A stretch of DNA of 37,152 bases from positions 1-37,152 of the forward strand of contig WJLY01000009.1 in the NCBI GenBank assembly GCA_014728245.1, read 5' to 3'. Below the pieces are notes generated by a model. That model saw only the letters and a program-made list of their open reading frames with translations, made no database searches and was not told where the DNA came from. Numbering within the stretch: position 1 is the stretch's first letter; each line of letters opens with the position of its first letter. Both the position numbers and the translations under genes were made by a program. Positions 1,133 to 27,028 of the stretch are shown here, piece after piece. This DNA is from Candidatus Effluviviaceae Genus IV sp. (lineage in GTDB: Bacteria; Joyebacterota; Joyebacteria; Joyebacterales; Joyebacteraceae).

Positions 1133-1750
1133 TCAGCGGTAGAGCGACTTGATGATGCCCCAGTGGACCGACTCGACGGGCGAGCCCACGTTGGGCGCGC
1201 CCGGCGTAGGCGGCAGGCCGGTCTCCGGGGGATCGAGGGGGTTCAGCTGGTCGAAGACCGCCCAGTCGGGCCCACCGTCGGGCAGGCGCCCGTACGACCT
1301 GTCGTCAGCTACGTCGCTCGACCCGTACTCCTTCTGGTCGATGATGGTCTCGTGATCGGCGGACACGAGAGTGACTACGTCGCCGCCGTTATTGAGCGAC
1401 AGGCCCTGACGCGGGTAGCCGCTCTGGTCCTCCCAGTGATAGGCCTCGTTGCCGAAGACAACCAGCAGATGGCCCGGCTGAATCGTCCCCGTGAACTCGT
1501 ACCTCCAGCTCGAGTCGGACACTGCGTCGCGCAGCCTCCAGCCCGTTATATCGACTGGATCGAGCCCGGCGTTCACGATCTCTACCCACTCATCCTCCAT
1601 CGAGTGGTACTCGTCGTTCCCGTCACTGGGCGACCAGTCCCTGGCCGGGTCGGCCATGACCTCGTTGATGAACACCTGCGCGCCAGCGGGCGAGACGCAG
1701 AGCGCGATAAGCGCGACGAACGCGGACACCAGAGCGGACCGAGTGATCAC
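1133..1750 (-). CDS. secreted lamin-tail-domain (LTD) protein, about 205 aa
   Basis: Shortened from track ORF 1133..1927. A GTG at 1748-1750 is preceded by GGAGGTG and yields a signal peptide (M)ITRSALVSAFVALIALCVSPAGA. LTD hallmarks follow: VFINEVMADP, EWVEIVN, DITGWRL, LSLNNGGDVVTL. The upstream in-frame extension is Arg/Pro-rich and unlike coding sequence. Confidence 0.8.
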   Translation of the reverse strand: MITRSALVSAFVALIALCVSPAGAQVFINEVMADPARDWSPSDGNDEYHSMEDEWVEIVNAGLDPVDITGWRLRDAVSDSSWRYEFTGTIQPGHLLVVFGNEAYHWEDQSGYPRQGLSLNNGGDVVTLVSADHETIIDQKEYGSSDVADDRSYGRLPDGGPDWAVFDQLNPLDPPETGLPPTPGAPNVGSPVESVHWGIIKSLYR

Positions 1751-2170: not shown

Positions 2171-2207
2171 ACAAAGAAGCGGCCCCCGCCAAGATGGCGG
2201 GGGCCGC
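2171..2207 (-). terminator. rho-independent terminator after the 955-aa LTD/OB/CTD gene
   Basis: gcggcccccgcc (2179-2190) pairs with ggcgggggccgc (2196-2207) across a short loop. On the minus strand TTCTTTGT follows. It lies 24 nt downstream of the stop at 2231. Confidence 0.7.
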
Positions 2208-2230: not shown

Positions 2231-5098
2231 CTACTTCAGGAGGACCATCTTCTTGCTCATCTCCTTCTCGCCGGCGTTCAGGCGGTAGAAGTAGACGCCG
2301 CTGGCGACCCGCTCGCCTGAGTTGGAACGACCGTTCCACTCCACGCTGTGCGGACCGGCGGCCATGTGACCGTCGACCAGCGTGGCAACTCTCCGTCCGG
2401 CCACGTCGTAGATGCTGAGTTCGACGTCGCCCGCCGAGGCCAGGCTGAAGGCGATCCTGGTCTTCGGGTTGAACGGGTTCGGCGAGTTCTGATGCAGGCC
2501 GAGCTTCGCGCTCACGCCGTCAGGCACGTCGACCGGGTTGACAGCGATGTCCTCGTTGCCCCTCGGCTCGATCCTGTAGTCCCCGTAGGCGTAGGCCACG
2601 AGTCCCTTGACGTAGACGTTGTCGCCCTGCACCGGCACGTAGTCGTAGTCGGCGTAGTCGCTGACGCGGCAGGTGTCGGACGCAGCGCCGTTTGTGATCA
2701 TCCACTCTCCGTACCCGACGTCCGCGTCCTCGACCGTGCAGTCCTCGGCGTGCACGTAGACGCTCTCGTACTGCTCACCCGAGACCGTGTTCTGGAGGCT
2801 CGCCGTCGCTATCGATGTCGGCGATATGGCCTCGCTCCGCGGCGGCGTGGCGAGCTGGGCGCAATCGGAGAAGTGGAGGGCCAACTGCGTCTGACCGAAG
2901 TACTCCTGAACCTCGCCGCAGGCCACGATGTAGTCGCCGCGCGAGAAGGTCTTCGAGCCCGACCTGTCGTAGACCAGGATGCCGTTCCAGGCTCCGCTGG
3001 CGTCGGCGATGTAGAACTGGTAGTCGCCGAAGACGCCCGGCTCCGCCGTCACGTAGCCCTCGACGTTGACCGCCAGGGACTCCATGACCGAAGCATCCAG
3101 GTCAGGTCCGACCGCCTGGACGTTCGCGATGTCCTCGATGCCGACGTAGAAGCTGTAGGTCCCGGCGGAGGGCTTCCGCGCGTCCATCGTGGCGTCCTGG
3201 CACTCGACGTAGTAGTAGATGCGGTCCCCGTCGCTGAACGGACCGATCGACGCCGCCCAGGTCTCTTCGACCGCCCTTGTCACCTCGGACATCGCGGTGC
3301 CTGTGAAGGGACCGCTCGGGCTGAGCGACCAGTTGAGAGTCGCGGACGAGATGTCGACGTCGTCCTCGAAGACCGCGCTCACGGTCACGTTTCCGCCCGG
3401 CGCCGGCGGCACCGGCGAGTAGCGCACGTCGCCTACCCTCGGCGGACCGATGATGTCCTCGTCGTATCTGGGCTCGAGCTTGTACTCGTCGTAGCTGTAC
3501 ATCACGATGCCACGGATCTCGTCTATCGCATCCAGCACTTCCGGCTCGTAGGAGTAGTATGCGTAGTCATCGACGTCCGCGTCTACGCCGGAAGAGTCCT
3601 GAATGTGCCACTGGCCGTAGTTGTCAGGGATGAGCGTAACGGTCGCGTCGGTAACGCTCACGAGCTGACTCTCGTACCGCTCGGCGTTGGGCTCGGTCGG
3701 CGCGATGTCGGCCGTGGTCACCGAGGCGTAGCCGTAGTTCGGGTTCCCGGTCGAGTGGACGACCAGCGCCTCCCAGAAGTGCTGCACGATCTCGGTCTGA
3801 CCGTAGTACTCACTGACGGTCCCGCAGATCGTTATGTCGTCGCCCTCGTTGATCTCCCCGTAGTAGCCGGGGGCGTAGCACTGGATACCCTCGTAGAAGC
3901 CGTTCCCCTCGTGGATCCAGAAGCTCGAGTCGGAGAACTCGCCCTTGGCGGCGGTCACGATACCGCGCACGTTCACGGCCTGCCCCACCAGAGGCGACTC
4001 GTCGACGGCCGTCTGGATGTCCGCGATCGTCGTATAGCCGACCGAGAAAGCGTAGGGATCGGCCTGCCCCTCGGCGGGGTAGTTGATGCCGGCGGCCTGG
4101 TCGTCGACCGCGCGCACGTAGTACTCGACCTGTGCGCCGTCGTACAGGTCCGCCATCGGGATGGCCCCCGTGTAGAGCGAATCGGGCGTTGTCGCGAAGA
4201 CTCGCTGCCAGCCCGCACCGTCGACGTTGTAGTAGACCATCACCGAGTCGACGCCGCTGTCGTCCGTCACGACCGCCGAGATCTCGACGTCCGACGTCTC
4301 GACCGGAGGAATCGGGGAATACTGCGGCGAGCGGACCCATGGAGGCGTGTTCGTGGTGTTCATCGCGGCCGGAGTCGGAACCTGCATCGCCCAGTCGACG
4401 TCGCTGTTGTCGGTATCGGTGCCGGCGGAGTCGCGCCCCAGCGTGTTGCCGAGGTACGGAATCCCGGCGAACGCGTTGTCGTCGGCGCCGTCATCGCCCG
4501 TGCAGGGATCGGTCGTGCACTCGTCGGGGTTTACATACTCAACGAGGTCGACCAGCGTAATAAAGGTCGAGGACGTGTAGAGATAGACGACGTCCGCGTT
4601 GCTCGTGCCGCCGCACATTACGCCGTAGCCGTTGCCGCCGACCAGGCCTATCTCGTCACTGTAGTTGGTGGCCGGATCGTCGTTGACGATCGTCATGTTC
4701 GGAACCGCCGCATAGTCGTCGTCGTAGGCGAACGACGGGTCGAACAACTCGAAGTCGGGATCGAAGCCGAAGTTCTCGTAGAAGCCGTCGTCGCCGTCGT
4801 GCGCGTCCTTGGCGACCACGATGTAGCCGCCCGCGGGTATCTCCGTGCCGGCGGGGAAGGTCCAGACATCCTCGCCGCCGCAAAGCTCGTCGAACTCCGT
4901 GCCGGTGAGCGCCCATCCGGCGATGGGGATCGAGCTCGCCGTCGGGTTGTAGAGCTCTATGAACTCCGCCCCGTCGTAGTTGCCGGGCGGGTTCGCATAG
5001 ATCTCGTTTATGACCACGTTGTCCCCGGAAGGACTGGCCACCGCCGTCCCGAAAGCGACAATGAGGACGACCGCGGCGATGAACGGAATCCGGTTCAT
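2231..5098 (-). CDS. secreted modular protein (955 aa): signal peptide, LTD, two copies of an [Ig-like + paired OB-like barrel] module, FlgD-Ig/T9SS-type C-terminal domain
   Basis: ATG at 5096-5098 follows AAGGAGGGAG. Signal peptide is MNRIPFIAAVVLIVAFGTAVA. LTD motifs: VVINEIYANPPG, EFIELYNP, IAGWAL. The C-terminus LHQNSPNPFNPKTRIAFSL...LSIYDVAGRRVATL...WNGR...SGVYFYRL...KKMVLLK is a near-textbook Por_Secre_tail/FlgD_ig pattern. Confidence 0.9.
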   Translation of the reverse strand: MNRIPFIAAVVLIVAFGTAVASPSGDNVVINEIYANPPGNYDGAEFIELYNPTASSIPIAGWALTGTEFDELCGGEDVWTFPAGTEIPAGGYIVVAKDAHDGDDGFYENFGFDPDFELFDPSFAYDDDYAAVPNMTIVNDDPATNYSDEIGLVGGNGYGVMCGGTSNADVVYLYTSSTFITLVDLVEYVNPDECTTDPCTGDDGADDNAFAGIPYLGNTLGRDSAGTDTDNSDVDWAMQVPTPAAMNTTNTPPWVRSPQYSPIPPVETSDVEISAVVTDDSGVDSVMVYYNVDGAGWQRVFATTPDSLYTGAIPMADLYDGAQVEYYVRAVDDQAAGINYPAEGQADPYAFSVGYTTIADIQTAVDESPLVGQAVNVRGIVTAAKGEFSDSSFWIHEGNGFYEGIQCYAPGYYGEINEGDDITICGTVSEYYGQTEIVQHFWEALVVHSTGNPNYGYASVTTADIAPTEPNAERYESQLVSVTDATVTLIPDNYGQWHIQDSSGVDADVDDYAYYSYEPEVLDAIDEIRGIVMYSYDEYKLEPRYDEDIIGPPRVGDVRYSPVPPAPGGNVTVSAVFEDDVDISSATLNWSLSPSGPFTGTAMSEVTRAVEETWAASIGPFSDGDRIYYYVECQDATMDARKPSAGTYSFYVGIEDIANVQAVGPDLDASVMESLAVNVEGYVTAEPGVFGDYQFYIADASGAWNGILVYDRSGSKTFSRGDYIVACGEVQEYFGQTQLALHFSDCAQLATPPRSEAISPTSIATASLQNTVSGEQYESVYVHAEDCTVEDADVGYGEWMITNGAASDTCRVSDYADYDYVPVQGDNVYVKGLVAYAYGDYRIEPRGNEDIAVNPVDVPDGVSAKLGLHQNSPNPFNPKTRIAFSLASAGDVELSIYDVAGRRVATLVDGHMAAGPHSVEWNGRSNSGERVASGVYFYRLNAGEKEMSKKMVLLK

Positions 5099-5285
5099 GT
5101 GAACTCCCTCCTTGGCTGCTGCTCCTCTCGTGCCGTTACCCTTCTTCATGAACCCGTGTTGATCGTGCCTCCTGTGCCCCCCTTTGTCTATGAGTGCACT
5201 CCTCCGTTACGCAACCGGCTCTCGTAAGACCCGCTGCGGAGTCCGCGACGTCGTTGCGCAAGAGGGCATGTTTTCCAGCATTGCG

Positions 5286-5314
5286 ATTATATCATATTCA
5301 ATCTGACTTGTCCA
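5286..5314 (-). promoter_or_regulatory. near-consensus sigma70 promoter for the 955-aa gene
   Basis: Minus strand reads TGGACA (5309-5314), a 17-nt spacer, then TATAAT (5286-5291). It lies in the most AT-rich patch I noticed by eye (about 5268-5318). The implied leader to the ATG at 5098 is about 180 nt. Confidence 0.55.
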
Positions 5315-5343
5315 GCTCCACACCTGAGTACCCGAAAGCATGA

Positions 5344-5371
5344 GCCCCGGCGGACTTCTGTCCCCCGGGGC
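5344..5371 (-). terminator. candidate terminator hairpin after the 5'-nucleotidase gene
   Basis: gccccgg (5344-5350) pairs with ccggggc (5365-5371). On the minus strand TCATGCTTTCGGG follows, a weak U-tract. It lies upstream of the 5286-5314 promoter. Confidence 0.3.
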
Positions 5372-5476
5372 CCACGGTCAGCATCGCTCTCTGCGAACCG
5401 CTCGCGAAATGCGGCGTCAGACGCTGCCGCCGGTGCCGTCCACGCCTGCCCCCGGCCACCTGTCCGGTCCGCCATG

Positions 5477-7231
5477 CTACTGATACGGGCCTGCGGATTC
5501 GTCTCCCGGCGGCTTCAGGGGCTCCATGCCCTCCATCGCTTCCTTGAGCTCCGGCGACTTCTCGGCGGTGTCGTCTCTGACCCACCGCCCGTCCAGAACG
5601 CCCTTCACGGGCGAATGGCGCTCAATGTAGTGGATCACCGCGTCGCGCATCGTCGTAGACGAGCGCATCTTCTTGTCTTCCGGCACATTCGGTAGCATGT
5701 AGAGTCCCGCGTTGCCAGACGCCAGGAAGTCGCTCGTCACGACACGGTAGGTCTTGTCAGGCTGCCACTGCTCGCCGCCCACGGTGAATTGCGTGATCCG
5801 GTCGTAATCGGGCCGCGTCTTGTTGTAGACGATCTCCCCACCCGACATGTAGACACCGTGATGGTCCGCGCTCACGCGGTACTCGATGACTTCTTTAAGG
5901 AGCCGCCCGTCCATCTCGAAGACCATGATGCTGTTGCCGAACGGCAGAACCTTGAAGACGTCGCGGGGAGTGATGGGCCCCGCGGGGATCTGGTCGCGGA
6001 TTCCGCCGAGGTTCGTGAAGGCGAAGTCGGCCGACATCTCTTCCCGCATCGCGTCGCACACGAGGTTGCCCATCCGCGTCTCGCCCTCGCCGCCTCGCGT
6101 CAGGTCGTTGGCCGCCTGGCCGATCACGCGGTCCATGCCGGCCTCGGCCTCATCGACCATGGCGTTCACCATCTCCGCCGTTTCGGGATCCGGCCACCAC
6201 TCGTCCTCGAAAAGGGTAATCAGGTCCCCTCTGTAGCTCGGAAGCTCGTACCCGGCGAGCGACTTCGTGTCGGGATCGATCAGGAGCATGATGTGGCCGA
6301 CGCCGGAGCCCCGTCCGTATGTCTGGAAGCACATCGTGTGGTTGGTGGGGTCTATCCACGGCTCGTCGTAGCCCACGTGGATGTGCCCGCCGAAGAAGGC
6401 GTCGATGCCGGAGACCTCGTGGGTGATCTTCATCACGTTCGGCCCCCACTTGCTCTCCTCCAGAGGTTCCCGTACCTCTTCGGCCTCTCGCTCCTCTTCC
6501 TCCTCGATCATCTTCCAGTATGCTTCCTCGCGTTCGTAGGGCAGCCCCATGTGGCCGGAGACGAACACGATGTCGACGCCCTTCTCTCGCAGCTCCCGGA
6601 CATACTTCCTGGCCGTCTCGATCTCCGGGAGGAACTCGATGGGCTCGACGTGCTTGGGAAAGGCCATCTTCGGCGTGTCGGTCGTCGTGAGTCCGATGAT
6701 CCCGACCTTGACGCCTCCGAACTCCTTGATGAGGTAGGGTTCCACGAGCTCAACGGGCTCCCCGCTTTCGGCCCACACCAGGTTGGCGGAGAGAACCGGC
6801 ATCTCCGACATCTCGATCAGGTGCCAGAGGTTCTCGGCGCCCTCGTCGAACTCGTGGTTGCCGACCGTCCACAGGTCGACACCGACGTGGTTGAAGAACT
6901 CGACGACCGTCTCGCCGTCCTTGTAGTTCCCCACCGGCGTACCCTGGAAGATGTCGCCCTGGTCCATCACCAGAACGTAGTGGTTGTCGCTCTCTGCCGC
7001 CTCGTCGCGCACCCTCTCTATGTAGGTAGCCGCCGAAGCGCCCCCGCCCAGCGGCGGAGGGAACTCCCTATTCATGAAGGTCGCGCCGCTCGGGTCGATG
7101 CCGCCGTGGATGTCGTTGGTGAAGATCACGGACAGCCGAATGAGATCGCCGTCCGCCTCGGCCGCATGCGACCCGCCGGCCGCCACGAGAAGCGCCGCGG
7201 CGACCGCCAGTATCAGAATTCTGAGTCTCAT
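5477..7231 (-). CDS. secreted 5'-nucleotidase / 2',3'-cyclic phosphodiesterase family (UshA-like; calcineurin-like phosphoesterase + 5'-nucleotidase C-terminal domain)
   Basis: Metallophosphoesterase motifs: TNDIHGG, DQGDIFQG, GNHEFDEG, SGHMG, GGHIHVG. C-terminal substrate-domain motifs: FTNLGGIR, FKVLPFGNS. Preferred start is ATG 7229-7231 after GGGGGAAGAG, giving the signal peptide MRLRILILAVAAALLVAAGGSHA. The track start at 7252 is the alternative. Confidence 0.9.
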   Translation of the reverse strand: MRLRILILAVAAALLVAAGGSHAAEADGDLIRLSVIFTNDIHGGIDPSGATFMNREFPPPLGGGASAATYIERVRDEAAESDNHYVLVMDQGDIFQGTPVGNYKDGETVVEFFNHVGVDLWTVGNHEFDEGAENLWHLIEMSEMPVLSANLVWAESGEPVELVEPYLIKEFGGVKVGIIGLTTTDTPKMAFPKHVEPIEFLPEIETARKYVRELREKGVDIVFVSGHMGLPYEREEAYWKMIEEEEEREAEEVREPLEESKWGPNVMKITHEVSGIDAFFGGHIHVGYDEPWIDPTNHTMCFQTYGRGSGVGHIMLLIDPDTKSLAGYELPSYRGDLITLFEDEWWPDPETAEMVNAMVDEAEAGMDRVIGQAANDLTRGGEGETRMGNLVCDAMREEMSADFAFTNLGGIRDQIPAGPITPRDVFKVLPFGNSIMVFEMDGRLLKEVIEYRVSADHHGVYMSGGEIVYNKTRPDYDRITQFTVGGEQWQPDKTYRVVTSDFLASGNAGLYMLPNVPEDKKMRSSTTMRDAVIHYIERHSPVKGVLDGRWVRDDTAEKSPELKEAMEGMEPLKPPGDESAGPYQ

Positions 7232-7325
7232 CTCTTCCCCCTGTCTTCGCATCTGCCGCCGCGCTTGCCGGAGGCCGAGCCCGGGGGAGGCAACTCTCTG
7301 CCCCGGAAGACGGCAGTCCCTGTCG

Positions 7326-8564
7326 CTAGAACGAGTGGACCAGCGTCGCCATCGCCTGCGTCGTCGTCTCCTTGAGCGTGGCGTCGCCGACGTCGTACTC
7401 GCGCATCATGATCCGCCCGCCGACGTCCACCCTTGCGCCCAGAAGGTTCAGGCCGACTCCCGCGCAGAAACCCGTGCGGGCGACGGTGTTGTCGACGTAC
7501 GAAGGCTCGTAGATGAAGCCGAAGCGCGCCTGTGTGTCGTCGTAGTAACCGTGCTCGATTCCCACCCTGTAGACGACCGTGTCGTCCAGCTCCGGGTCCT
7601 CTTCAACGCTTCCGTCCTCGAACTCGGACCACCTCACGTACTCGACGTCGAATGAGACCGTGGTCATGATGAGATTCCGCGGATGGTACTCGAATCCGAC
7701 CGCGAAGGCGTCGGGATAGCCGTACGTGAAGCTCCCGGACGCGGTCGAATCGGGACCCGTGGCGCTCATCGAATAGTCGTCGACGTCCAGATCGAACGCG
7801 GAGCGGTAGACGAACGCTATGTCGACCCGGTGGAGCGTCTCCACCAGAAGGCCGGCCGTGAACTGCGTGCCCGAGACGTCGTCGTACTCCCACCGCGTCT
7901 CCGAATCCGACTCCTCGGAGTCCGGCGGGTAGACGTATCGCTCCCGGTCCTCGAAGTCGCCGCGGATAAAGTCGACGCCCAGTCCGAGGTGGACGTCCCT
8001 GTATACCTCCTGCCCCAGCGCTACCGTGAACGCGCTCACCGCGCCGTCGCCCTCGGCGTAGTAGTCGTAGAGGATCTTGTCGTTGGGCTCGGTCTGGCTG
8101 TCGGGATCCCGGTACTGGACATGGTACTTGTAGTTCATGTCCAGCCTGGGTCCGTAACCCACGCCTACCGTCGGCGCCCACGTGAGGTCGTCGGGCGGCG
8201 TATAGGCCACGTTCAGCATGTAGTGGTCGTAGAACCCGGTGTTCAGGGCGAACGTGTTCTCGGCGATGATGCCGTCGAAGCTGTCGTGGAGCGGCACGTC
8301 TCGAGACTCCTCAGCCGCCATTCCGAAAGCGGTGGCGGCCACCTGAAGCCCCTGGTTCTTTCCCAGAAGGGCCGGGTTCAGGCCGATGCCTCTCGCGCCG
8401 TCGGCCGACGCCATTCCGGCCCCGCCCATCGCCATCGACCTTCCGTCGATGGGAGGCAAGGGATCGCCGTACTGCTGCCAGCCGGTGTAGGTGTATGCGC
8501 CCGCCGAAGCGGCCGTAACCGCCACGCACAGGGCAGCCAGCGCCGCAGCTCGCACGTGCCGCAT
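7326..8564 (-). CDS. outer-membrane beta-barrel, FadL/PorV superfamily
   Basis: ATG at 8562-8564 follows AGGAGG at ideal spacing, giving the signal peptide MRHVRAAALAALCVAVTAASAGA. The N-terminal hatch-like motif GRSMAMGGAGMASADGARGIGLNPALLG resembles FadL/PorV families. Alternating amphipathic strands follow, with a terminal ...LVHSF (aromatic last residue). Confidence 0.7.
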   Translation of the reverse strand: MRHVRAAALAALCVAVTAASAGAYTYTGWQQYGDPLPPIDGRSMAMGGAGMASADGARGIGLNPALLGKNQGLQVAATAFGMAAEESRDVPLHDSFDGIIAENTFALNTGFYDHYMLNVAYTPPDDLTWAPTVGVGYGPRLDMNYKYHVQYRDPDSQTEPNDKILYDYYAEGDGAVSAFTVALGQEVYRDVHLGLGVDFIRGDFEDRERYVYPPDSEESDSETRWEYDDVSGTQFTAGLLVETLHRVDIAFVYRSAFDLDVDDYSMSATGPDSTASGSFTYGYPDAFAVGFEYHPRNLIMTTVSFDVEYVRWSEFEDGSVEEDPELDDTVVYRVGIEHGYYDDTQARFGFIYEPSYVDNTVARTGFCAGVGLNLLGARVDVGGRIMMREYDVGDATLKETTTQAMATLVHSF

Positions 8565-8632
8565 CTTTGGCCTCCTGTCTCTTCTCTTCACAGTTGTTTT
8601 GATGCGATTCATCGTCTCAGGACTCCCTGTTG

Positions 8633-11113
8633 CTACCAGGAATAGTCGACCTGCAGCCTGAATCCCGACCAGTCGTCACGCACGTAAGACCCGTCCGGCT
8701 CGGGATTTCCGGGCGGGTTCCAGTTGTACTCCCTGGCGTCCAGATACGTTATCGGATACTTGTGGTCGCTGGTCCAGCGGAGCCTCAGCGCGAGATTGTC
8801 CGAGATCCTGTCGGAGAGAGAGATCCACCAGCGGAACGCCTTGCCGTCCACGACGGTGAACTGCCCGTCCTCGAAGGTCCAATAGAAGCCGTCGTAGTAC
8901 CCGAACGCCCCGCTCATGGCCAGCCAGTCGCTGAAGTTGTGGGTCACTACTCCTAGAAGCGCATAGGAGGGGGATCCCGCCGAACCGATGTCCGGATGAC
9001 CTCCGTCCGCCTCGATGTTGTCGGACAGCCTGGGCCTCGGCGGCCACTTGATCCACGACCGAGACAGCATGAACTCCACGTTGTCGTACTTCGAGAGGCG
9101 GTACTCGAGGTTGAACCTGGTCTCCGTTTGCGTGTAGCTCATCGGCGAGATCCAGTTCGACTCGAGCCGGCCCTGCCACTTCTGCCTCAGGTTCATGACA
9201 ATGTTGTAGATCGGCTGGAACCTGAGCTTCAGCACCAGTCGCGAGTAGTCCGAACCGTCGGCCTTCCGCTCCCAGACGTCGTATTCGACCGACGGCGTGA
9301 GGCGGTGGGAGAAGCGGTACCGCGACTCCAGGAAGAGCCCGCGCTCCGGCTGAGGCGTCACCGAGTTCAGGTACAAAAGCCCGTAGATCGGGTCCGCCAG
9401 GTAGAAGTAGTCCTCGAGCACGGTGCCCTTGTAGCGCTTGTACTGCGAGAAGGCCCTCGAGTACGGGTTGTCGTAGTCGATGTCATAGTCACGGTAGATG
9501 GCCAGCAGGTTCAGGTTGCTGTAGGCCGCGTAGCCGTTCAACACGAAGGCGTTCGGGTCATCCCCGAACTCGAATATCTCGCCGTCGCTGTCGAGGCCGG
9601 CGTACTCCCCCGCGAACGAGTAGTTGTCGTGCACCCACTGGAACTCCGCGCCGTAGACCCTGCGGAACTTGCCGGGGCTCGTGTAGGTGCTGAAGTACTC
9701 GCCGTCCATGGCGACCAGATGATCCTCGTCCGCGTCGGGAACCATCCACGTGACGTCGATCGGTGTCGAGGGATCGTACGCAGCCTTGAAGTACTTGTTG
9801 TACCTGCTCTCGTAACCGGAGAGTCCCACCCAGGTCCCGGGTCCGAAGTTGTACTTGAGGTTGCCGCCGAAGGTCTGCTCGTGGAGCACGTCGCGCATCG
9901 GCCTTAGGCCCGCGCCCTTGAGATCGTCGTTCCGGATCCTCGGCGACATGATGATGTACTGATTGGCCGTGCCGTCGGGATTCAGGACCGCGTCCTTCCA
10001 GTCGTCGGAGTAGAAGAAGATGCCCTTCAGGGGACCCGCCGTCGCCTCGGCTGCTGCGCCCGAGAGCTGGAACTCCTGCGTCTGAGACAGGTCGCCGATG
10101 ATGCCTATGTAGCGGTGCTCCCATCCGAAGCCCGAGTTCCTTGGCTTGTAGAAGTCGGTGTTCTGCATCACGAGGCCCTGGCCCCAGGCCACGGCGTAGT
10201 TTCCCAGGATGATGTTGTCGAAGTGGACCGGCCCCGCCTTCTTGTCCTTGACGGTGGCGTGGAACTTGACCGCGTCCAGCTCTTCGTCCGCCCCCAGCCC
10301 GCGGTGGGCCAGCGCTCCCGCCCTTATGTCCTGACCCCACCTGAGCCTGAGCTTGTGCTGATAGGTGGGCGCATCGTTGCCCAGATCGAGGCGGTCCCAC
10401 CACGAGTCGTAGGCCTCGTCGGCTGGATTGCGGTCCTCACGGAGGCAGTCCTCAACGTCGAAGAGCGTCGAAGCGCTGCTGACCCTGTACTGGTAGCTTC
10501 CCCGAAGGTCGGCTGCCTCGCTCGGCTCCTCGTACCTGACGAAGTTTCTTGCGTTGTAGTACCCCCAGTAAGTGAGTCCGGGCACGTTGCGGAGCTGCGA
10601 ACGGTACTCGATCCTGTTCCTGCGAGTGTACCTGTAGATCGCAGCCGCATCGGACGGAGAGACGTTCTGCAGATTCGCAAGCTCCGTGTACGTGGCGGTG
10701 TTGACGTTGATCGGATCCTTCGCGAGGTCGATCCACTGGTCAACCAGAGCCTCGCTCGCGCCCTCCTCGGCCTCCCACCGGCGAATCCTGTAGTAGATCT
10801 CGTTGATCCGCTGGAGCTCCTCGTCCTCCACCGTCACCGGCACCACCTTGACCAGCGGCTTGAGCGTGTTCATCTCCTCCACGGAGATCTCGCCCAGCTC
10901 CCTGAGATCGTAGATGCTGTCGTAGTACCGGTGGTACTCCTTGTGCCACCAGATCGCGTAGGCGTCCTCGTCGGAGATCGGAAGCTCCTTGATCTCCTCG
11001 AGGCTGGCCGCGTTCAGGTCGAGCTTCTCGTCCCCATACGCTGTCGGGGCGGCAGCAAGGAGCCCCAGGAGTACAAGCATCCCCAGAAGCCCCGCGGCCG
11101 TTCTGTGTCTCAT
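8633..11113 (-). CDS. ComEA-like helix-hairpin-helix region fused to a large outer-membrane beta-barrel (826 aa)
   Basis: Trimmed from track ORF 8633..11458. ATG at 11111-11113 follows GGGAGGT, giving the signal peptide MRHRTAAGLLGMLVLLGLLAAAPTAYG. Two ComEA-type units are present: LDLNAASLEEIKELPISDEDAYAIW and INVNTATYTELANLQNVSPSDAAAIYRY. About 600 aa rich in Y/W/G/D/N alternating strands follow, ending ...RLQVDYSW. Confidence 0.8.
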   Translation of the reverse strand: MRHRTAAGLLGMLVLLGLLAAAPTAYGDEKLDLNAASLEEIKELPISDEDAYAIWWHKEYHRYYDSIYDLRELGEISVEEMNTLKPLVKVVPVTVEDEELQRINEIYYRIRRWEAEEGASEALVDQWIDLAKDPINVNTATYTELANLQNVSPSDAAAIYRYTRRNRIEYRSQLRNVPGLTYWGYYNARNFVRYEEPSEAADLRGSYQYRVSSASTLFDVEDCLREDRNPADEAYDSWWDRLDLGNDAPTYQHKLRLRWGQDIRAGALAHRGLGADEELDAVKFHATVKDKKAGPVHFDNIILGNYAVAWGQGLVMQNTDFYKPRNSGFGWEHRYIGIIGDLSQTQEFQLSGAAAEATAGPLKGIFFYSDDWKDAVLNPDGTANQYIIMSPRIRNDDLKGAGLRPMRDVLHEQTFGGNLKYNFGPGTWVGLSGYESRYNKYFKAAYDPSTPIDVTWMVPDADEDHLVAMDGEYFSTYTSPGKFRRVYGAEFQWVHDNYSFAGEYAGLDSDGEIFEFGDDPNAFVLNGYAAYSNLNLLAIYRDYDIDYDNPYSRAFSQYKRYKGTVLEDYFYLADPIYGLLYLNSVTPQPERGLFLESRYRFSHRLTPSVEYDVWERKADGSDYSRLVLKLRFQPIYNIVMNLRQKWQGRLESNWISPMSYTQTETRFNLEYRLSKYDNVEFMLSRSWIKWPPRPRLSDNIEADGGHPDIGSAGSPSYALLGVVTHNFSDWLAMSGAFGYYDGFYWTFEDGQFTVVDGKAFRWWISLSDRISDNLALRLRWTSDHKYPITYLDAREYNWNPPGNPEPDGSYVRDDWSGFRLQVDYSW

Positions 11114-11184
11114 CGTACCTCCCGCGTCTCTTCGGTTCGTGAAGACCGCGCCGACGTCCGGCGCAGGCCCCGGCCCGAGACCTC

Positions 11185-12066
11185 CTAGAATGCGTAGCCC
11201 AGAGCGAAATGGTGCGAGCCCGGAAGCGTGGCGTGCGACGTATAGCTGTAGTCGACTCGAACGCCCTTCCAGTGCGTCCCGAAGCCGACCGACAGGCGGT
11301 CGGGCTGGTTCTGCAGTCCGCCACGCAGCGTTATGTAGTCGGTGACCTCCATCTCCAGCCCGAAGCAACTCCTCAGGTCCTCGTCGTCCTGCTTCTGCAT
11401 CTCGAGCACGGTGTTGACCCCGCCGTACGGGCTGTACGCGACTCCGGCCGTGAACCACTGCGGAAGGTCCTCGGCGTCGGGATCGCCCAGCTTCGGGTTG
11501 TTCAGGTTCTTCGCGAAGAACCCGAAGCTTGTCCGGCCGCGCAGCGTTCCGATCACGCCGACGTCGATCCCGAACGTGCTCGCTGAGCCAAGATCGTGAC
11601 CTCCCACGCTCTCCTCCTCGAAGGAGAGGCCGTAGAAGCTGAACGAGTAGCCCAGGGAGAGCGACGAGTGGATGTCCTCCATCACCGTGAAGCCGTGTCC
11701 GAGGGCGACCGAGTACTCGTTCTCCAGATCGACTCCCTCGTAGGACACGCTCAGGACCCTGGCGCCGAGGCCTATCGTGCCCTTGCCCGTGGGCATGGCG
11801 GCGGCGAATGAACCGAGGTCCAGAAACTCGTAGCCGTAGAGGTCGACGTAGGTCCCGTAGAACCCGAACTTATCCTGCTGCGCCAGGCCCGCGGGATTCG
11901 TGAAGATCGCGGTCTCGTCATCGGACACCGCGACGAATGCGCCGCCCATCGCGCGGGCTCTCGGCGACAGCACCAGGTTGTCGAACACACCCGCGGCGGC
12001 CGCCCACGACGGGACGAGAAGCGCCGCCAGTGCCGCAAGCGTGACTGCCAGTCTTGCTGTTCTCAC
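11185..12066 (-). CDS. PorV/PorQ-like outer-membrane beta-barrel (FadL/PorV superfamily)
   Basis: GTG at 12064-12066 follows AAGGAGG, giving the signal peptide (M)RTARLAVTLAALAALLVPSWAAAAG. The motif SPRARAMGGAFVAVSDDETAIFTNPAGLAQ matches my memory of the PorV-family N-terminus. The protein ends ...ALGYAF. Confidence 0.7.
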   Translation of the reverse strand: MRTARLAVTLAALAALLVPSWAAAAGVFDNLVLSPRARAMGGAFVAVSDDETAIFTNPAGLAQQDKFGFYGTYVDLYGYEFLDLGSFAAAMPTGKGTIGLGARVLSVSYEGVDLENEYSVALGHGFTVMEDIHSSLSLGYSFSFYGLSFEEESVGGHDLGSASTFGIDVGVIGTLRGRTSFGFFAKNLNNPKLGDPDAEDLPQWFTAGVAYSPYGGVNTVLEMQKQDDEDLRSCFGLEMEVTDYITLRGGLQNQPDRLSVGFGTHWKGVRVDYSYTSHATLPGSHHFALGYAF

Positions 12067-12121
12067 TTAGGCCTCCTTCGGGAGCGGGAAGGACCGTTCC
12101 CGCCTCAAACGCGTGTGTTCC

Positions 12122-15100
12122 CTAGTTGAGTTTCGTCCCGACGACGATCGGAACCGCCGAGTCGGTTATCTTCTCTCCGTCACGTGCGTCCGCCTGGATG
12201 TGGCAGATGTACACGCCGACGGGTACCTTCTTTCCATTGTCGTCCCGTCCGTCCCAGCTCCGCCTGATGTCACCCATGCACTTCCCGTCGTAGACGGTCG
12301 CCACCGCGCGGCCCTTGAGATCGTAGATCCGTACCGCCACGTGGCTGCACCCGTTGGAGAAGAACCCTATGTCTATCGACTCGCCGGACGAGATGTCGAG
12401 GACCTTCGCGTCCACGTCGAGTCTGGCGGTCCCTTCTCCGGCGCTGCCCAGCTTGACGATGTCGCTGTCGTACCTCGGCGCCAGCTCGTACCCGTCGAGG
12501 TACGGCTCGGTGTAGTCGTACTGCAGGACGATGCCCGTGACGTCGAGGCTGTCGCCGAGCGCGTACTGGCTGAAGTCGAGGTCTGTGAAGTTCTGGTAGA
12601 CCTGGCAGGCGCCCGAGCCGTCGTCTATGTAGATCGCGAACCCCTCGACGCTTACGACGACACCGGACGTCCTGGCGAGCGTGCCCTCCAGCCGCTCGCT
12701 CCCCACGTCACCGGTCCTGAGCACCGACGGTTCTATCGCGTCGAACCCCCTGGCCAGAACGGTTATGAGGGCGTTGGATATCTCCGTGGTCGAGCCCTCC
12801 GGGGTCGCCCACGGATCGCTGCTGTCGACGCTCCGGTACTCCACGACGAGACCGGAGCAAAGGAGCAGGTCGCCGACCATCGCGGGATGCGGCATGAGTT
12901 CGGGCGAATAGACGTTGAGGCCCCAACCTTCGGTGTCCTCGATGAAGATGTTCGTTCTGTCAGGCTGGAACACGCCCGGCTCGACTACCGCGAACCCGAC
13001 CGTCGTCGCTTCCTGCCCCCACAACGGCGAGTATCCGTTCTCGTCCCAGTCCTGGATCTCCGAGAGCGGCGTCACGACCGAGGGCGAGCCGCTGAAGGTG
13101 CCGTCGTGGGGATCGATCAGGTTCCCGCCGGCGTCGGACACGCCGGTGACGGAGATGTCGTAGACCTGATCGGGCGTCTGCTCGCCGGTCTTGAGAAGCA
13201 CGGTCCTGGCGTCTCGCGTGAGCCACGCGCCGCCCACCGTGAGCCTCTCCGCCAGGCCCTCCTGAGCTGTGATCTCGTAATTGGCCTCGTCGACGGCGTC
13301 GTCCTCGTCGACCGGCTCGTTGAACTCGACGAGCACGAACGTGCTGCCCCCGGTGCCGACGGTGACGATCTCGGGGGCCTTCCCGTCCCCCAGCACGTTT
13401 GCCGTGCCCGGGGTCGGCCAGGAAGAAAGCACGAAGTCGTGCGCTGAGTCGTCGGTGTCATCCTCCGTGAGATCGCGGACCAGCGAGTAGTGCTCGGGCG
13501 GCACGCCGGGATACGCGTCGGACGCGCCACCGAGCCCCTCAGTGCCCGGGCAGTGGTCGCTCTGGAAGTGGACCGGATCCCGGTACTCCATCGCGTCGAC
13601 AAGCTGCGTCAGGGTTCTGTCGGAGTAGAGGTACACGGCCTCCGCTCCGGGCAGAAGCGCGGGCGAGAGCGCCCCGTTCCTGTCGAACCCGCCCAGCAGC
13701 CGGATCTCCTGGCTCGTCGTCACGTCCCCGTCCGAATCCGAAACCAGGACCATGTTGGGCACGTCGTCCCACGTAGCGTCACCCTGCCAGTCGCTGTCGT
13801 CGAAGTCGGAATCGACCATCTCGAAGAGCTTGATCGCGTTCACGTCGAGACTGTCGCCGAACACCTTGAGGAAGCCGTACGACCGGGGCCCGGCCTCCTT
13901 GTAGGCGTCCTTCGTCACCACCAGCCGCTCGCCGGGGGCCAGTCTGACGGGCGGGTCGGTGGGGAATTCCCAGATGTTCGATCCGCCGCACGCCCCCGAG
14001 TCGTCCAGGTCCGCGAGCGCCCAGCCGGACACGTCGACCGTGTCGTCGCCCGGGTTCGCCAGTTCGATGAACTCCGCCCGGTCCTTGGCGTCCTGGTCCT
14101 CGAGCGAGTGAGCGTATACCTCCGTTATGAGGACCGCGCCCGGATCAGCCAGGAAGCCCACGACCACCTCGGGCGACTCCTGGATCGCCGCGGGTTCTCC
14201 GGCGGCCGGCGCCGTCGCGAAGACGAACGTGAATCCGCCGGCGGCGTCCGGAGCGACGATGTTCTCGATCTCCAGCGTTCCGATGTCGTCGACGGTGAGC
14301 GCCGCGCCCGATACGGTAACGAGGTCCGCCGTCGTGCTGTCTTCGACGACCGCGGCGCCCGTGAAGCCGGCACCCGAGAGAGCGACGTCCGAGGCCTGGC
14401 CCGAGAAGTTCCACCCCTCCGGGATCTCGACCACGATGCGCGTCAGAACGTCTGCTTCTCCTCTGAGCGAGAACGCCAGGTCTACGGTCTGGTTGGCGAA
14501 GACGCGTTCGGTCTCCGCCTCGGCGAACCCGCTCCCCGGCCCGCGCGACAGAACATGCTCGCGCGACGGCGGAAGCATCCCGTGCCCTCTCCAGGACGAC
14601 ACGGTTCTCAGTCTCGGCACGACGACCCCGTAGACGTCGAACGTGTCGCCCGGGGCCGGCGAGCCGCACACGTCGGTGTCCGCGTCGAACCACAGCCTGC
14701 AGGACGTATCGGCGTCCGCGACGTAGGTTGCCTGGTCGACGGCGCATGGCTCGTCGGGCCATTGATGCGGGAGCGTGAGGTACACCCGCCTCATGACCGC
14801 GTACGTCCCCTCGTAATCCTCGCCCTCCGACGTTGCCAGCATGCGCGGCGTCACGACGGCCGGCGCGGGCGGAGCGTGCCCGGTCGACAGAACCGCGATC
14901 CCGGCCTCCGGAACCTGGGACGTGTCGACCTCGATGTAGGTCTTCCTGAGCGAACCCGAACTCAGGTCGTAGAGAACCTCCCCCGTCACCATCACGCTGT
15001 CGCCCCTGGCGACCGCGGGCGAGGCGGTCAGGGGCTGCACGACGTTCACGCCTCCCGTCGCGTCCTGAATGTAGACGTCGTTGTTGGAGGCCAGATACCC

Positions 15101-15268
15101 CGTGCCGATAGTGACCACTCCCCTGACGGTCACGACCTGCTCAAAGAGAACGGGGTAGCCGTTCTCGTCATCGGCATTGACCTCCGAGATGTCTATGACC
15201 TGTCCCAGCGCGACGGACGGGAGCAGGACAAGCAACATCCCTGTCGTCAGTGCAAGGCCAAGTTTCAT
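12122..15268 (-). CDS. secreted modular protein (1048 aa): paired OB-like barrels, Ig-like region, LTD, SbsA-Ig-like domain, second paired OB-like barrels, FlgD-Ig-type C-terminal domain
   Basis: Signal peptide is MKLGLALTTGMLLVLLPSVALG. LTD motifs lie at about aa 377-622: VLITEVYAHS, EFIELANPG, VSGWALADL. OB-like pattern: VTVRGVVT...VYIQDATGGVNV...GDSVMVTGEV and VGFAVVEPG...IFIEDTEGWGLNV...GYELAPRYDSDI. The C-terminus is RIYDLKGRAVATVYDG...WDGRDDNGKKVPVGVYICHI...VVGTKLN. Confidence 0.9.
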   Translation of the reverse strand: MKLGLALTTGMLLVLLPSVALGQVIDISEVNADDENGYPVLFEQVVTVRGVVTIGTGYLASNNDVYIQDATGGVNVVQPLTASPAVARGDSVMVTGEVLYDLSSGSLRKTYIEVDTSQVPEAGIAVLSTGHAPPAPAVVTPRMLATSEGEDYEGTYAVMRRVYLTLPHQWPDEPCAVDQATYVADADTSCRLWFDADTDVCGSPAPGDTFDVYGVVVPRLRTVSSWRGHGMLPPSREHVLSRGPGSGFAEAETERVFANQTVDLAFSLRGEADVLTRIVVEIPEGWNFSGQASDVALSGAGFTGAAVVEDSTTADLVTVSGAALTVDDIGTLEIENIVAPDAAGGFTFVFATAPAAGEPAAIQESPEVVVGFLADPGAVLITEVYAHSLEDQDAKDRAEFIELANPGDDTVDVSGWALADLDDSGACGGSNIWEFPTDPPVRLAPGERLVVTKDAYKEAGPRSYGFLKVFGDSLDVNAIKLFEMVDSDFDDSDWQGDATWDDVPNMVLVSDSDGDVTTSQEIRLLGGFDRNGALSPALLPGAEAVYLYSDRTLTQLVDAMEYRDPVHFQSDHCPGTEGLGGASDAYPGVPPEHYSLVRDLTEDDTDDSAHDFVLSSWPTPGTANVLGDGKAPEIVTVGTGGSTFVLVEFNEPVDEDDAVDEANYEITAQEGLAERLTVGGAWLTRDARTVLLKTGEQTPDQVYDISVTGVSDAGGNLIDPHDGTFSGSPSVVTPLSEIQDWDENGYSPLWGQEATTVGFAVVEPGVFQPDRTNIFIEDTEGWGLNVYSPELMPHPAMVGDLLLCSGLVVEYRSVDSSDPWATPEGSTTEISNALITVLARGFDAIEPSVLRTGDVGSERLEGTLARTSGVVVSVEGFAIYIDDGSGACQVYQNFTDLDFSQYALGDSLDVTGIVLQYDYTEPYLDGYELAPRYDSDIVKLGSAGEGTARLDVDAKVLDISSGESIDIGFFSNGCSHVAVRIYDLKGRAVATVYDGKCMGDIRRSWDGRDDNGKKVPVGVYICHIQADARDGEKITDSAVPIVVGTKLN

Positions 15269-15298
15269 GCTTCCTGTCCTTTCGTATCCGTCGTGCGA

Positions 15299-16399
15299 TC
15301 AGTTCAGCTTTATTCCGACGACCGCCGGCGCAATCTTGACGCTCTTGTTGCCGTCGCGGTCCTCCACCTCCAGCCTGCAGATATAGGTGCCCGCCGGGAC
15401 CAGACGCCTCAGCTCGTCGCGCCCGTCCCAGCCACGGACGCCCTCGCCGTAGAACCCTTCCTTGTAGTATTCCGGCAGAGCCGAGATGCCCTCGTAGTCT
15501 CCCTCGGTCAGCGTCCTCACAAGCCGTCCCTGGAGGTCGTAGACCTCGATCGTGGTCTCGCTTCTCTCGGGAGCGGAGTATCCGATGGGAAGCACCTCAC
15601 CTATGTCCGGGCGGAACGGCCGGGCTGGAACGCTGAGACGAGCCTCGGCCGAGTACTCCGGCTCCGGCGGCTCCACCGGCTCGGCGTACTGCATGTCGCT
15701 CTGGTAACGCGGCACCAGCTCGTAGCCCTGCAGGTACGGCGCCGCCCGGTCGTACTGCAGCACGAAGCCGGTGATCTCGAGCGTGTCGCCGGGCACGAAA
15801 ACGCTGAAGTCGGTGCCCTCGATGTAGCTCTTGTATACCTGCACGCTGGCTCCCGAGTACGGGTCACCCAGGTACATGCTGAAGTCGAAGTTGTTGTCGA
15901 TCACGATGCCGATCGTCTTGACGAGTCTCCCCTCGTTGTCCTCGAGATTCACGTCCGGCAGGTCGAGCGCGGCCGCCTCGACCGGATCGTTGCCGGTCGA
16001 GAGAAGCTCTATCTGCTCCAGGCTCTCGCACATGATCTCGGTCGTTGCTCCGGCCCCCGAACCGCTGCTCACGTACTCCACCACCTCTCCGGTCACCTGG
16101 ACCGAGTCTCCGAGCGCCAGCTCGAAGGGAAGGAGGTCGAAGCAGAAGATGTTGACCCCGCAGTCGCCCTGCTGGATGTACATCGACGTGTATTGCGGCT
16201 GCAGAAGCCCCGGCGGCACGATCACCGCTCCCTTCACCGTCACCGTTTCTCCCTCCAGGAGAGAAAAACCGGCCGAATCGTAGTCCTGCACGTCGCATAT
16301 GGTCACCGCCCCGGCGGGCGCCGGGCGGGCGAGAAGCGCCGCCAGGCACAGGGCCGCCGCGAGCGTCGCGACCGCAGGTGTATTCAGGTTCTTCGTCAT
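15299..16399 (-). CDS. secreted minimal paralog (366 aa): paired OB-like barrels + FlgD-Ig-type C-terminal domain, no LTD
   Basis: ATG 16397-16399 follows AGGGGGA. The signal peptide ends ...ARPAPAGA. Pattern: ICDVQDYD...VTVKGAVIVPPG...MYIQQGDCGVNIF...GDSVQVTGEVVEY...GYELVPRYQSDM. The C-terminus EVYDLQGRLVRTL...WDGRDELRRLVPAGTYICRL...VVGIKLN is paralogous to that of the 1048-aa protein. Confidence 0.85.
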   Translation of the reverse strand: MTKNLNTPAVATLAAALCLAALLARPAPAGAVTICDVQDYDSAGFSLLEGETVTVKGAVIVPPGLLQPQYTSMYIQQGDCGVNIFCFDLLPFELALGDSVQVTGEVVEYVSSGSGAGATTEIMCESLEQIELLSTGNDPVEAAALDLPDVNLEDNEGRLVKTIGIVIDNNFDFSMYLGDPYSGASVQVYKSYIEGTDFSVFVPGDTLEITGFVLQYDRAAPYLQGYELVPRYQSDMQYAEPVEPPEPEYSAEARLSVPARPFRPDIGEVLPIGYSAPERSETTIEVYDLQGRLVRTLTEGDYEGISALPEYYKEGFYGEGVRGWDGRDELRRLVPAGTYICRLEVEDRDGNKSVKIAPAVVGIKLN

Positions 16400-17726: not shown

Positions 17727-17802
17727 CGTGTTACCTCCGTCGAACTCCCCTACGGCCCGTCCCTGCGCGGCCAACGCGGCCGCGCCGGCGGAAGACGCCT
17801 GA

Positions 17803-19002: not shown

Positions 19003-19038
19003 GACGGCGGCCCGCCGGGGCCGACTAGCGGGACGCTC

Positions 19039-22443: not shown

Positions 22444-22546
22444 GAAACCTCCCTGGGGTCTCGTCGCGGGGCCGGCCTTCGGCCGGACCGGTACGTCGGT
22501 ACTCCCGCTCGACGTCGGCCCTGCCGCCCGAAGCGCCCTCTCACAC

Positions 22547-26948: not shown

Positions 26949-27028
26949 GAGGCAGGCGCCCCTTCCGTCCTTGCTCTTCATGCGCCGTTGTGCCCCGGCC
27001 GGGGCGACGGACGTGTGGCGGGACGTGG

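Follow-up and report, generated by a model that had tools for sequence, protein, structure and literature searches.

Contig WJLY01000009.1 of assembly GCA_014728245.1, assigned to Candidatus Effluviviaceae Genus IV sp., was analysed over positions 1 to 37,152, and the whole of this 37,152-nucleotide stretch, with a G+C content of 62–70%, is referred to here as the window. All genes discussed lie on its minus strand (Table 1). Our subject is a set of three secreted proteins of 955, 1048 and 366 amino acids (p955, p1048 and p366), built from lamin tail domains (LTDs), paired small β-barrels and C-terminal domains (CTDs) of the kind found in type IX secretion systems (T9SS). Between p1048 and p955 lie four further genes, encoding a PorV-like barrel, an outer-membrane barrel with N-terminal helix-hairpin-helix domains (the HhH barrel), a FadL-like barrel and a 5'-nucleotidase. 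We consider it probable that the three proteins are non-catalytic substrate-capture 'antennae' of a conserved outer-membrane module for scavenging nucleic acids.

Pairwise BLASTP aligns p366 with the last 320 amino acids of p1048 at 37% identity (E=7e-58) and with the N-terminal unit of the same protein at 28% identity (E=6e-13), and aligns p955 with p1048 at 28% identity across 582 amino acids (E=1e-35). Judged by these alignments the three are true paralogues, related far beyond chance, as an earlier sequence-only reading of this DNA had claimed. That reading had also given all three a signal peptide, and a hydrophobic segment ending in an A-x-A-type site can indeed be read at each N-terminus; no lipobox is present in any of the three, whose N-termini read as ordinary signal peptides. 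The LTDs it had placed in two of the three, and in a fourth, small protein downstream, were all recovered by Pfam (PF00932, gathering score 34.3 bits; individual scores in Table 1), which returned no LTD in p366. The longest open reading frame (ORF) for p955 encodes 972 amino acids from a start at 5149; homologues, which carry the name 'lamin tail domain-containing protein', are 953–980 amino acids long and cover the 955-residue form in full.

Table 1. Features of the 37,152-nucleotide window, with positions counted from its first letter unless given as residues of the protein
Feature	Position	Strand	Description
LTD-only secreted protein	1133..1750	-	205 aa, GTG start; Pfam LTD 65.3 bits
Intrinsic-terminator-like hairpin	2179..2207	-	just 3' of p955 stop; 13 pairs, 12 G-C, T-rich tail; consensus match only
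p955	2231..5098	-	955 aa; LTD, two OB units, canonical CTD
p955 canonical T9SS type-A CTD	about 2234-2494	-	FlgD_ig 44.2 bits
p955 OB unit 2	2534-3166	-	after Ig-like domain 2
p955 OB unit 1	3440-4042	-	after Ig-like domain 1 (PPAD-Ig-like)
p955 LTD	4325-5032	-	after signal peptide; Pfam 58.6 bits
Promoter-like site	5286..5314	-	ahead of p955; TGGACA-17-TATAAT with extended TG; 11/12 matches; consensus match only
UshA-like 5'-nucleotidase, secreted	5477..7231	-	Metallophos 127.4 bits, 5_nucleotid_C 51.2 bits; NCBIfam UshA 201 bits
FadL/PorV-like outer-membrane barrel	7326..8612	-	413-428 aa; Pfam Toluene_X 30.1 bits
HhH barrel (HhH-OMP)	8633..11113	-	826 aa; signal peptide, two ComEA-type HhH domains, barrel, end ...QVDYSW
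PorV/PorQ-family-like outer-membrane barrel	11185..12066	-	293 aa; NCBIfam PorV_fam NF033709
p1048	12122..15268	-	1048 aa; two OB units, LTD, variant CTD
p1048 variant CTD	12125-12424	-	FlgD_ig 27.0 bits, exactly at cut-off
p1048 OB unit 2	12425-13096	-	custom OB-pair hidden Markov model: two domains in p1048
p1048 Ig-like region	residues 626-724	-	between LTD and OB unit 2; no family assignment (Pfam)
p1048 LTD	residues ~371-625, window 13394-14158	-	Pfam 42.2 bits
p1048 beta-rich region	residues 240-370	-	between OB unit 1 and LTD; no family assignment (Pfam)
p1048 OB unit 1	14555-15205	-	after signal peptide
p366	15299..16399	-	366 aa; signal peptide, one tandem-OB unit, variant CTD
p366 variant FlgD-Ig-type CTD	residues ~252-366, window 15302-15646	-	FlgD_ig 19.1 bits, sub-threshold
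p366 tandem-OB unit	residues ~30-240, window 15680-16312	-	AlphaFold model
UgpB/UgpA/UgpE-like ABC importer	16434..20013	-	one substrate-binding protein, two permeases; directly upstream of p366
ComEC-type metallo-β-lactamase (MBL) lipoprotein	20102..21376	-	lipoprotein-type signal …LCVCGC, FN3-like domain, MBL domain HYHGDH
Bmp/PnrA-type nucleoside ABC importer	21541..28081	-	substrate-binding protein, double ATPase, two permeases
murJ (lipid II flippase)	22547-24253	-	TIGR01695 298 bits; between two Bmp/PnrA permease genes
Purine catabolism genes	29312..37094	-	adenine deaminase, carbamate kinase, two OTCase/YgeW-like carbamoyltransferases, xanthine-dehydrogenase-type FAD subunit, YqeB (selenium-dependent Mo-cofactor protein), XdhC

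Searches of the three proteins against Pfam and NCBIfam (E<=0.01), and of p955 and p1048 against PDB sequences, returned no catalytic domain, bearing out what had been read by eye; the domains they did return were LTD, FlgD-Ig, OB, PPAD-like Ig and FlgD only, with the PPAD Ig match falling on the first Ig-like domain of p955. A hidden catalytic domain was considered as a candidate and rejected on these results. The related idea, that one of the unassigned regions or an LTD is a cryptic nuclease or phosphodiesterase, draws on the two stretches of p1048 and the long LTD insertions that lack a family assignment, and on the names 'predicted extracellular nuclease' or 'YhcR' that JGI pipelines attach to some homologues. 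Those names, however, derive from the OB and LTD parts, no catalytic family was matched, and p366 is modelled as an OB pair and a CTD only, so that we regard a cryptic enzyme as highly improbable.

The paired-barrel unit of ~210 amino acids occurs in five copies, one in p366 and two each in p1048 and p955, and an alignment of the five reproduces the motifs G..V.V.G, I.D, GD.V.V.G.V.EY, E..EG.LV and GY.L.PR, in agreement with the consensus previously drawn by eye for all three proteins. An AlphaFold model of p366 built from 52 orthologues (pLDDT 91.8, pTM 0.77) comprises two consecutive small β-barrels followed by a β-sandwich. Foldseek searches of this model against the PDB matched OB folds at a probability of 1.00 and an rmsd of about 4 Å over 95–120 residues, namely the anticodon-binding domains of aspartyl- and asparaginyl-tRNA synthetases and STN1 of the CST complex. 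The tandem OB folds of HIN-200 proteins (MNDA, p202 HIN1/HIN2, AIM2, IFI16) were matched at probabilities of 0.98–1.00 across ~200 columns, with modest TM scores of 0.33–0.41, and the best match overall was Porphyromonas PorU, through the CTD. An OB assignment that had been offered from sequence pattern is therefore upheld by model and fold search, and the barrels did not model as carbohydrate-binding modules (CBMs). The whole-chain matches to CBM74/Sas6 (rmsd about 18 Å, probability 0.57–0.69) were discarded because the OB matches are better.

Two lines of evidence place this unit among known families. Firstly, p955 matches positions 31–116 of the NCBIfam ExeM/NucH nuclease model NF033681 twice (E=3.5e-17), p366 matches it weakly, and the N-terminus of an EEP nuclease of solved structure (PDB 9sf8/9sf9, E=5e-4) is matched by the p366 family profile; these profile matches make the unit a homologue of the OB region in ExeM/NucH nucleases. 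Secondly, residues 373–566 of p955 align with positions 4–217 of the 217 in Pfam DUF5689 (PF18942) at 17.3 bits and E=0.0047, short of the gathering score of 28.6 bits. A profile of the five units retrieved 8284 representative proteins at E<=1e-3 and 435 at E<=1e-30, and 48 relatives sampled from the best 150 (E<=1e-45) were scanned for domains. Among these 48, PF01336 OB-fold was found in 21, DUF5689 in 20 (best E 3e-56), FlgD_ig in 16, Por_Secre_tail in 15 and LTD in 13; in one of the relatives (P0458) the Pfam DUF5689 segment, 23–203, coincides with the unit match at 22–205. We therefore assign the paired barrels to a divergent DUF5689 type of tandem OB module. A nuclease domain (Endonuclease_1, PLDc_2 or EEP) was present in only three of the 48, and nuclease-less proteins combining OB units with a CTD are the rule, not the exception, among the closest relatives of the unit.

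The split between a canonical CTD in p955 and a variant CTD in p366 and p1048 proved real. In the variant the FlgD-Ig core (IYD..GR.V.T, WDGRD, GxY) is kept and the NSPNPFNP start is missing, and one further strand, A(V)P.VVG.KLN, is added at the end; this strand is nearly invariant in 52 orthologues. The broader claim, that all three end in a FlgD-Ig/T9SS-type domain, stands in its first part and for one protein in its second: all are of FlgD-Ig type, but NCBIfam TIGR04183 (T9SS type-A) accepts only p955 (31.5 against a cut-off of 23; PF18962 26.7, just under its cut-off of 27), p366 falls below it at 19.2, and p1048 has no TIGR04183 match, only one to FlgD_ig. The CTDs of all three align to the C-terminus of PorU in NCBIfam. 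PorU has an uncleavable CTD and owes its surface location to binding PorV, and PorZ also keeps its CTD, with anchoring through PorQ proposed (PMC5562754). The resemblance would lie in a surface protein with an uncleaved CTD held non-covalently by a FadL-like PorV/PorQ barrel; it does not extend to function, there being no sortase or lipopolysaccharide-delivery role in the window proteins, and the PorV-like gene here is dedicated to the module. The 293-residue PorV-like protein has a distant orthologue with a weak Pfam PorV match.

Downstream of the PorV-like gene, the HhH barrel was modelled by AlphaFold (pLDDT 83.3) as two N-terminal HhH domains followed by an outer-membrane β-barrel of roughly 24–26 strands, whose Foldseek neighbours are SlpA, MtrB, the FimD/PapC ushers and the barrels of TonB-dependent receptors. 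It matches Pfam HHH_3 at 46.3 bits (gathering score 27) and the ComEA model TIGR01259 at 29.7 bits against a cut-off of 152, and is thus not a ComEA orthologue. As in ComEA, HHH_3-type domains stand at its N-terminus and are predicted to be periplasmic; unlike ComEA, they are fused to an outer-membrane barrel of ~600 amino acids and their hairpin glycines are replaced. No plug, TonB box or TonB-dependent receptor family was detected in the adjacent barrels by Pfam or NCBIfam. The FadL-like barrel gave sub-threshold matches to NCBIfam BamG and PorV_fam. A literature search found no earlier description of a module with an HhH barrel, and another found no link between Eisenbacteria and T9SS.

The module is widely conserved. 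An alignment of the HhH barrel was scanned against one genome per GTDB species, yielding 390 confirmed matches, and gene neighbourhoods were surveyed in the best 80 of these loci, with denominators restricted to loci whose flanks are long enough to judge. These 80 represent at least eight lineages of the Fibrobacterota–Chlorobiota–Bacteroidota (FCB) group, namely Eisenbacteria, Zixibacteria, Gemmatimonadota, Ignavibacteria, Fibrobacteraceae, KSB1, Krumholzibacteriia and Latescibacterota, and share a near-invariant core order of an LTD/OB protein with variant CTD, the PorV-like gene, the HhH barrel, the FadL-like gene and the 5'-nucleotidase. A PorV-like gene lies directly upstream of the HhH barrel in 69/70 loci, a variant-CTD protein directly upstream of the PorV-like gene in 62/64, a FadL-like gene directly downstream of the barrel in 64/68 and a 5'-nucleotidase within 5 kb downstream of it in 49/51. 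Accessory genes, counted in the 36 loci with full 10-kb flanks, are less constant: a UgpB-like substrate-binding protein in 21, a p955-type protein with canonical CTD in 18 and an LTD-only protein in 14. The variant-CTD cargo protein carries OB pairs in 44 of 62 loci; when six of the cargo proteins in which local search had found neither an OB pair nor an LTD were scanned with Pfam, five proved to have 2–4 LTDs, and no enzyme domain was found in any of the cargo proteins so scanned. An OB pair was sought by local hmmsearch in the most distant type of cargo (that of locus L004) and none was found; Pfam gives it 2–4 LTDs, with the same variant CTD.

Orthologues of the three proteins and of the HhH barrel belong mainly to Candidatus Eisenbacteria metagenome-assembled genomes (MAGs) and their annotations read hypothetical, 'lamin tail domain-containing' or 'helix-hairpin-helix domain-containing'. 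For p366 there are about 100 orthologue clusters, mostly from Candidatus Eisenbacteria. Homologues at 69–85% identity bear that name. MAGs labelled Fibrobacter and Gemmatimonas also carry the module, and two related loci have the same gene order as the window. In one relative (L001 15282-18993, on a 1.14-Mb ENA contig) many short ORFs stand in place of the HhH-barrel gene and several of its neighbours; these are probably assembly frameshifts and not pseudogenes, as order and content otherwise match. Two Eisenbacteria loci (L021 8995-11865 and L029 18940-21810) carry an extra canonical-CTD protein of ~957 amino acids between the p955-type and LTD-only genes, in which local search found neither an OB pair nor an LTD.

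This pattern of conservation suggests that the variant CTD is a dedicated docking tag for the PorV/PorQ-like barrel and not a generic export tag; that it docks there we infer from the strict gene adjacency. The same linkage has a second possible interpretation, in which these are generic surface-coat, adhesin or spacer proteins that sit together through shared PorV-like anchoring and not through a substrate. They are repetitive, β-rich, multidomain proteins with CTDs, and it is with the PorV-like gene, not with any enzyme, that the variant CTD shows tight linkage. Against this, the cargo is built from LTD and/or OB-pair modules with no other adhesin folds in the loci examined, and the gene order with HhH barrel and 5'-nucleotidase is kept down to about 40% identity; we think a coat or spacer role very unlikely.

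Nucleic acid is strongly indicated as the substrate of the antennae by the genomic context: the HhH barrel, an MBL protein, the 5'-nucleotidase, a nucleoside ABC importer and genes for purine catabolism. The MBL lipoprotein matches NCBIfam ComEC_Rec2 (positions 439–633, E=1.9e-21) and the MBL domains of ComEC in the PDB (E=4e-12 to 1e-10), and is a candidate nuclease of the system. Its gene lies inside the core in Fibrobacteraceae and Krumholzibacteriia, and in one locus (L054 20583-22073, plus strand) a signal peptide and a ComEC-type MBL domain (HYHSDH) are joined to an OB-pair unit within a single ORF, cut by the contig end and adjoining the same module. Such a fusion links the OB unit to that hydrolase functionally. 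Taken together, the gene content lets the window be read as a single route that starts from polymeric nucleic acid, passes through nucleoside and ends in purine catabolism.

The sequence-only reading had proposed a family of catalytically silent capture or tether proteins. The absence of a catalytic domain, the OB folds, the ExeM/NucH homology and the nucleic-acid context all support this, but the proteins are not free-standing: they appear as antenna subunits of a conserved module that is divided over several genes, with its enzymes encoded alongside. We propose that the antennae are exported by their Sec signal peptides and would be displayed at the surface by means of the FlgD-Ig/T9SS-type domains at their C-termini. 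The variant CTD of p366 and p1048 would stay attached and dock on the PorV/PorQ-like barrel, as PorU does on PorV and PorZ on PorQ, and the tandem-OB arrays, together with the LTDs, would hold extracellular DNA or RNA at the cell surface. The ComEC-type MBL lipoprotein may then cut the polymer, which could be threaded through the large HhH barrel, where, to judge from barrel topology and ComEA biology, the N-terminal HhH domains may act in the periplasm as a retention ratchet; the retention of DNA by the HhH protein ComEA in competent bacteria offers a precedent (PMC3879209). The UshA-like 5'-nucleotidase, as expected of its family, would turn nucleotides into nucleosides and phosphate, and the Bmp/PnrA importer would take up the nucleosides and pass them to adenine deaminase and the xanthine-dehydrogenase/carbamate-kinase pathway.

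A bolder version of this proposal is that the HhH barrel, its PorV/FadL-type partners and the CTD-docked antennae form an undescribed TonB- and pilus-independent outer-membrane importer of nucleic acid, widespread in the FCB group outside the Bacteroidia. The variant CTD would here have been recruited to dock permanently on a PorV paralogue dedicated to it, and a built-in ratchet resembling ComEA would draw the polymer inward. We put this forward tentatively, as a possibility that we lean against at present.

It is worth noting that several observations count against the capture of nucleic acid by this module. Net charge is -17 to -30 in the five OB units, each of which has only 6–12 Lys+Arg; the two LTDs stand at -37 and -39, and 404 units from top relatives have a median net charge of -19. 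Such acidic units differ from the basic DNA-binding faces of HIN domains, which they resemble in fold only. The LTD, moreover, is largely dispensable in ExeM (PMC6085458). In both HhH domains of the barrel (window 10200-11030, minus strand) the LPGIGxxxA hairpin is replaced by LP-ISDEDA and LQNVSPSDA, and this loss of the G-h-G glycines is kept in 52 homologues, so that DNA binding by these domains is not guaranteed. The ComEC-type MBL is present in only 18 of the 36 fully flanked loci, and the endonuclease step is thus not always encoded nearby. As to docking, the PorV-like protein, which aligns along positions 11–326 of the 326 in NF033709 (E=5e-22), scores 78.9 bits against a cut-off of 90, and two CTD-bearing C25 peptidases from relatives match the PorU model in the CTD only and are not PorU.

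Electrostatic DNA binding of the HIN type was considered and is unlikely given the strongly negative net charge; as the modules are very acidic, any binding would probably rely on base stacking or on Mg2+/Ca2+ bridges. Acidity is also a wider property of the window: all exported or outer-membrane proteins have a pI of 4.0–4.9 and cytoplasmic enzymes are near neutral, with whole-protein net charges of -110 for p955 and -113 for p1048. Such acidic exported proteins suggest a saline habitat or a cation-rich surface layer, and the isolate names of many related MAGs are of a cold-seep or sediment type. An environmental share in the acidity is therefore possible, yet it is family-wide. This family-wide acidity of OB and LTD modules is one argument for a different ligand (divalent cations, mineral surfaces, a cationic polymer or a glycan), with the module scavenging free nucleotides or organophosphates only. 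To it may be added that OB folds also bind oligosaccharides, that a UgpB-like importer is adjacent and that distant multi-LTD cargo proteins give Pfam matches to CBM_56, which are short and partial and were not counted as evidence of glycan binding. We nevertheless find a different ligand quite unlikely, since the OB region to which the unit is homologous is one that ExeM needs for its nuclease activity, an MBL–OB fusion exists, the partner barrel bears HhH domains, and CBM74/Sas6 matches are poor where OB matches are strong.

The proposed capture of nucleic acid by a surface OB protein has a precedent, and the closest known analogue of the window is the ddb locus of Bacteroidales. A DNA-utilization locus of gut Bacteroidales, ddbABCDEF encodes a DUF5689 lipoprotein with a p202-like fold, DdbD, whose proposed role is to bind DNA as a partner of the TonB-dependent transporter DdbC (Sharan et al., PNAS 2025, PMC12478041). 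Both loci have a non-catalytic surface protein made from a tandem-OB, HIN/p202-like DUF5689 unit. In each its gene has those of an outer-membrane transporter and of nucleic-acid hydrolases, secreted or periplasmic, as neighbours, in a route from nucleic acid to nucleobases. The differences lie in the parts: DdbD is a single-unit lipoprotein of the signal peptidase II type working with a TonB-dependent transporter, whereas the window units are arrayed with LTDs and T9SS-type CTDs beside PorV-like and HhH-fused barrels, the enzymes are a ComEC-type MBL and a 5'-nucleotidase, and the phyla also differ. The window proteins are not DdbD-type lipoprotein partners of a TonB-dependent transporter, but would work in a DdbD-like manner with a different architecture.

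In Riemerella anatipestifer, RA0C_RS04920 (DUF5689+DUF5017) and RA0C_RS04915 are natural-transformation proteins (PMC8459023); one DUF5689 protein is essential for transformation in this bacterium, to whose genes ddb is related (PMC8459023, PMC12478041). Here too a DUF5689 surface protein, an adjacent outer-membrane barrel and an HhH (ComEA-like) protein are needed for DNA uptake, but the HhH protein is separate and periplasmic, the barrel is TonB-dependent-like, and the outcome is transformation and not catabolism. This invites the alternative that the module is a DNA receptor and uptake apparatus for natural transformation and not for feeding, with the OB/LTD proteins as receptors, the HhH barrel as entry port and the MBL protein processing the incoming strand; the two roles are not mutually exclusive. 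Besides the Riemerella pair, in which an outer-membrane partner is essential alongside the DUF5689 protein, and its evolutionary relationship to ddb, the alternative gains from the fact that ComEA-type HhH domains and ComEC-type MBL domains are hallmarks of competence. On the other side, the 5'-nucleotidase belongs to the core (the 49/51 given above), the module abuts nucleoside importers and purine catabolism genes in the window and in close relatives, and the MBL protein lacks the membrane channel of ComEC and stands alone as a lipoprotein. We judge a transformation apparatus unlikely, and retain nucleic-acid scavenging as the preferred reading.

YhcR of Bacillus subtilis joins OB folds, a SNase domain and a 5'-nucleotidase in one sortase-anchored protein (as cited in PMC6085458). 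It shares with the window the display on the cell surface of an OB nucleic-acid-binding and 5'-nucleotidase set, but does so on one polypeptide that includes the thermonuclease, whereas the window functions are split, with the 5'-nucleotidase as a separate gene; Pfam and NCBIfam give no SNase match in the window proteins. ExeM, NucH and Xds similarly combine an LTD with a YhcR-like double-OB region in a secreted protein, and this region is essential for ExeM activity (PMC6085458). The EEP domain of these nucleases is absent here (no Pfam match to PF03372 or PF19580 in p955, p1048 or p366, and 62.5 bits against a cut-off of 300 for NF033681), and anchoring is by GlyGly-CTERM/rhombosortase in ExeM and by CTD in the window proteins. 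As the catalytic domain was tested for and is absent, these proteins are not members of the ExeM/NucH or YhcR families.

LTDs have been suggested as DNA-binding helpers of halophile DNases (PMC4486849), and the 'DNA-degradation loci' of Izemoplasmatales are marked by a protein with LTD and nuclease (PMC8289736). In sediments, extracellular DNA forms a major pool of phosphorus, nitrogen and carbon (PMC8289736). A DNA-utilization system resembling a polysaccharide utilization locus was described only in 2025, and for gut Bacteroidales only (PMC12478041). The window locus would follow the logic of ddb using other components: anchoring by CTDs, docking on a PorV-like protein and a barrel fused to ComEA-type domains. 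It thereby offers a testable role for bacterial LTDs and for thousands of 'hypothetical' OB/CTD proteins, presents the HhH barrel as a candidate outer-membrane DNA channel and suggests a second use of T9SS-type CTDs. Should cultured Fibrobacter or Gemmatimonas carry the module, these predictions would be open to genetics.

Among the remaining features of the window, the gene set at 29312-37094 is of the purine-fermentation type; the start of the second carbamoyltransferase is probably internal, as two tandem ORFs overlap. The insertion of murJ among the Bmp/PnrA permease genes is also seen in a related locus (L002). With its promoter-like site and terminator-like hairpin, p955 appears to form its own transcription unit. 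The LTD-only protein ends in HWGIIKSLYR (window 1133-1162) and an unrelated relative of 248 amino acids with only an OB pair (P0471) ends in SWGRVKALHR; these ends may form a short tag at the C-terminus, for sorting or anchoring, that differs from the CTDs. At window 1-1000, on the minus strand, a partial membrane-protein ORF (…GSNNFNFATAGL…, …GSNSFNLLVF…) runs off the window start and, by eye, looks like a cation/Ca2+ exchanger-type protein.

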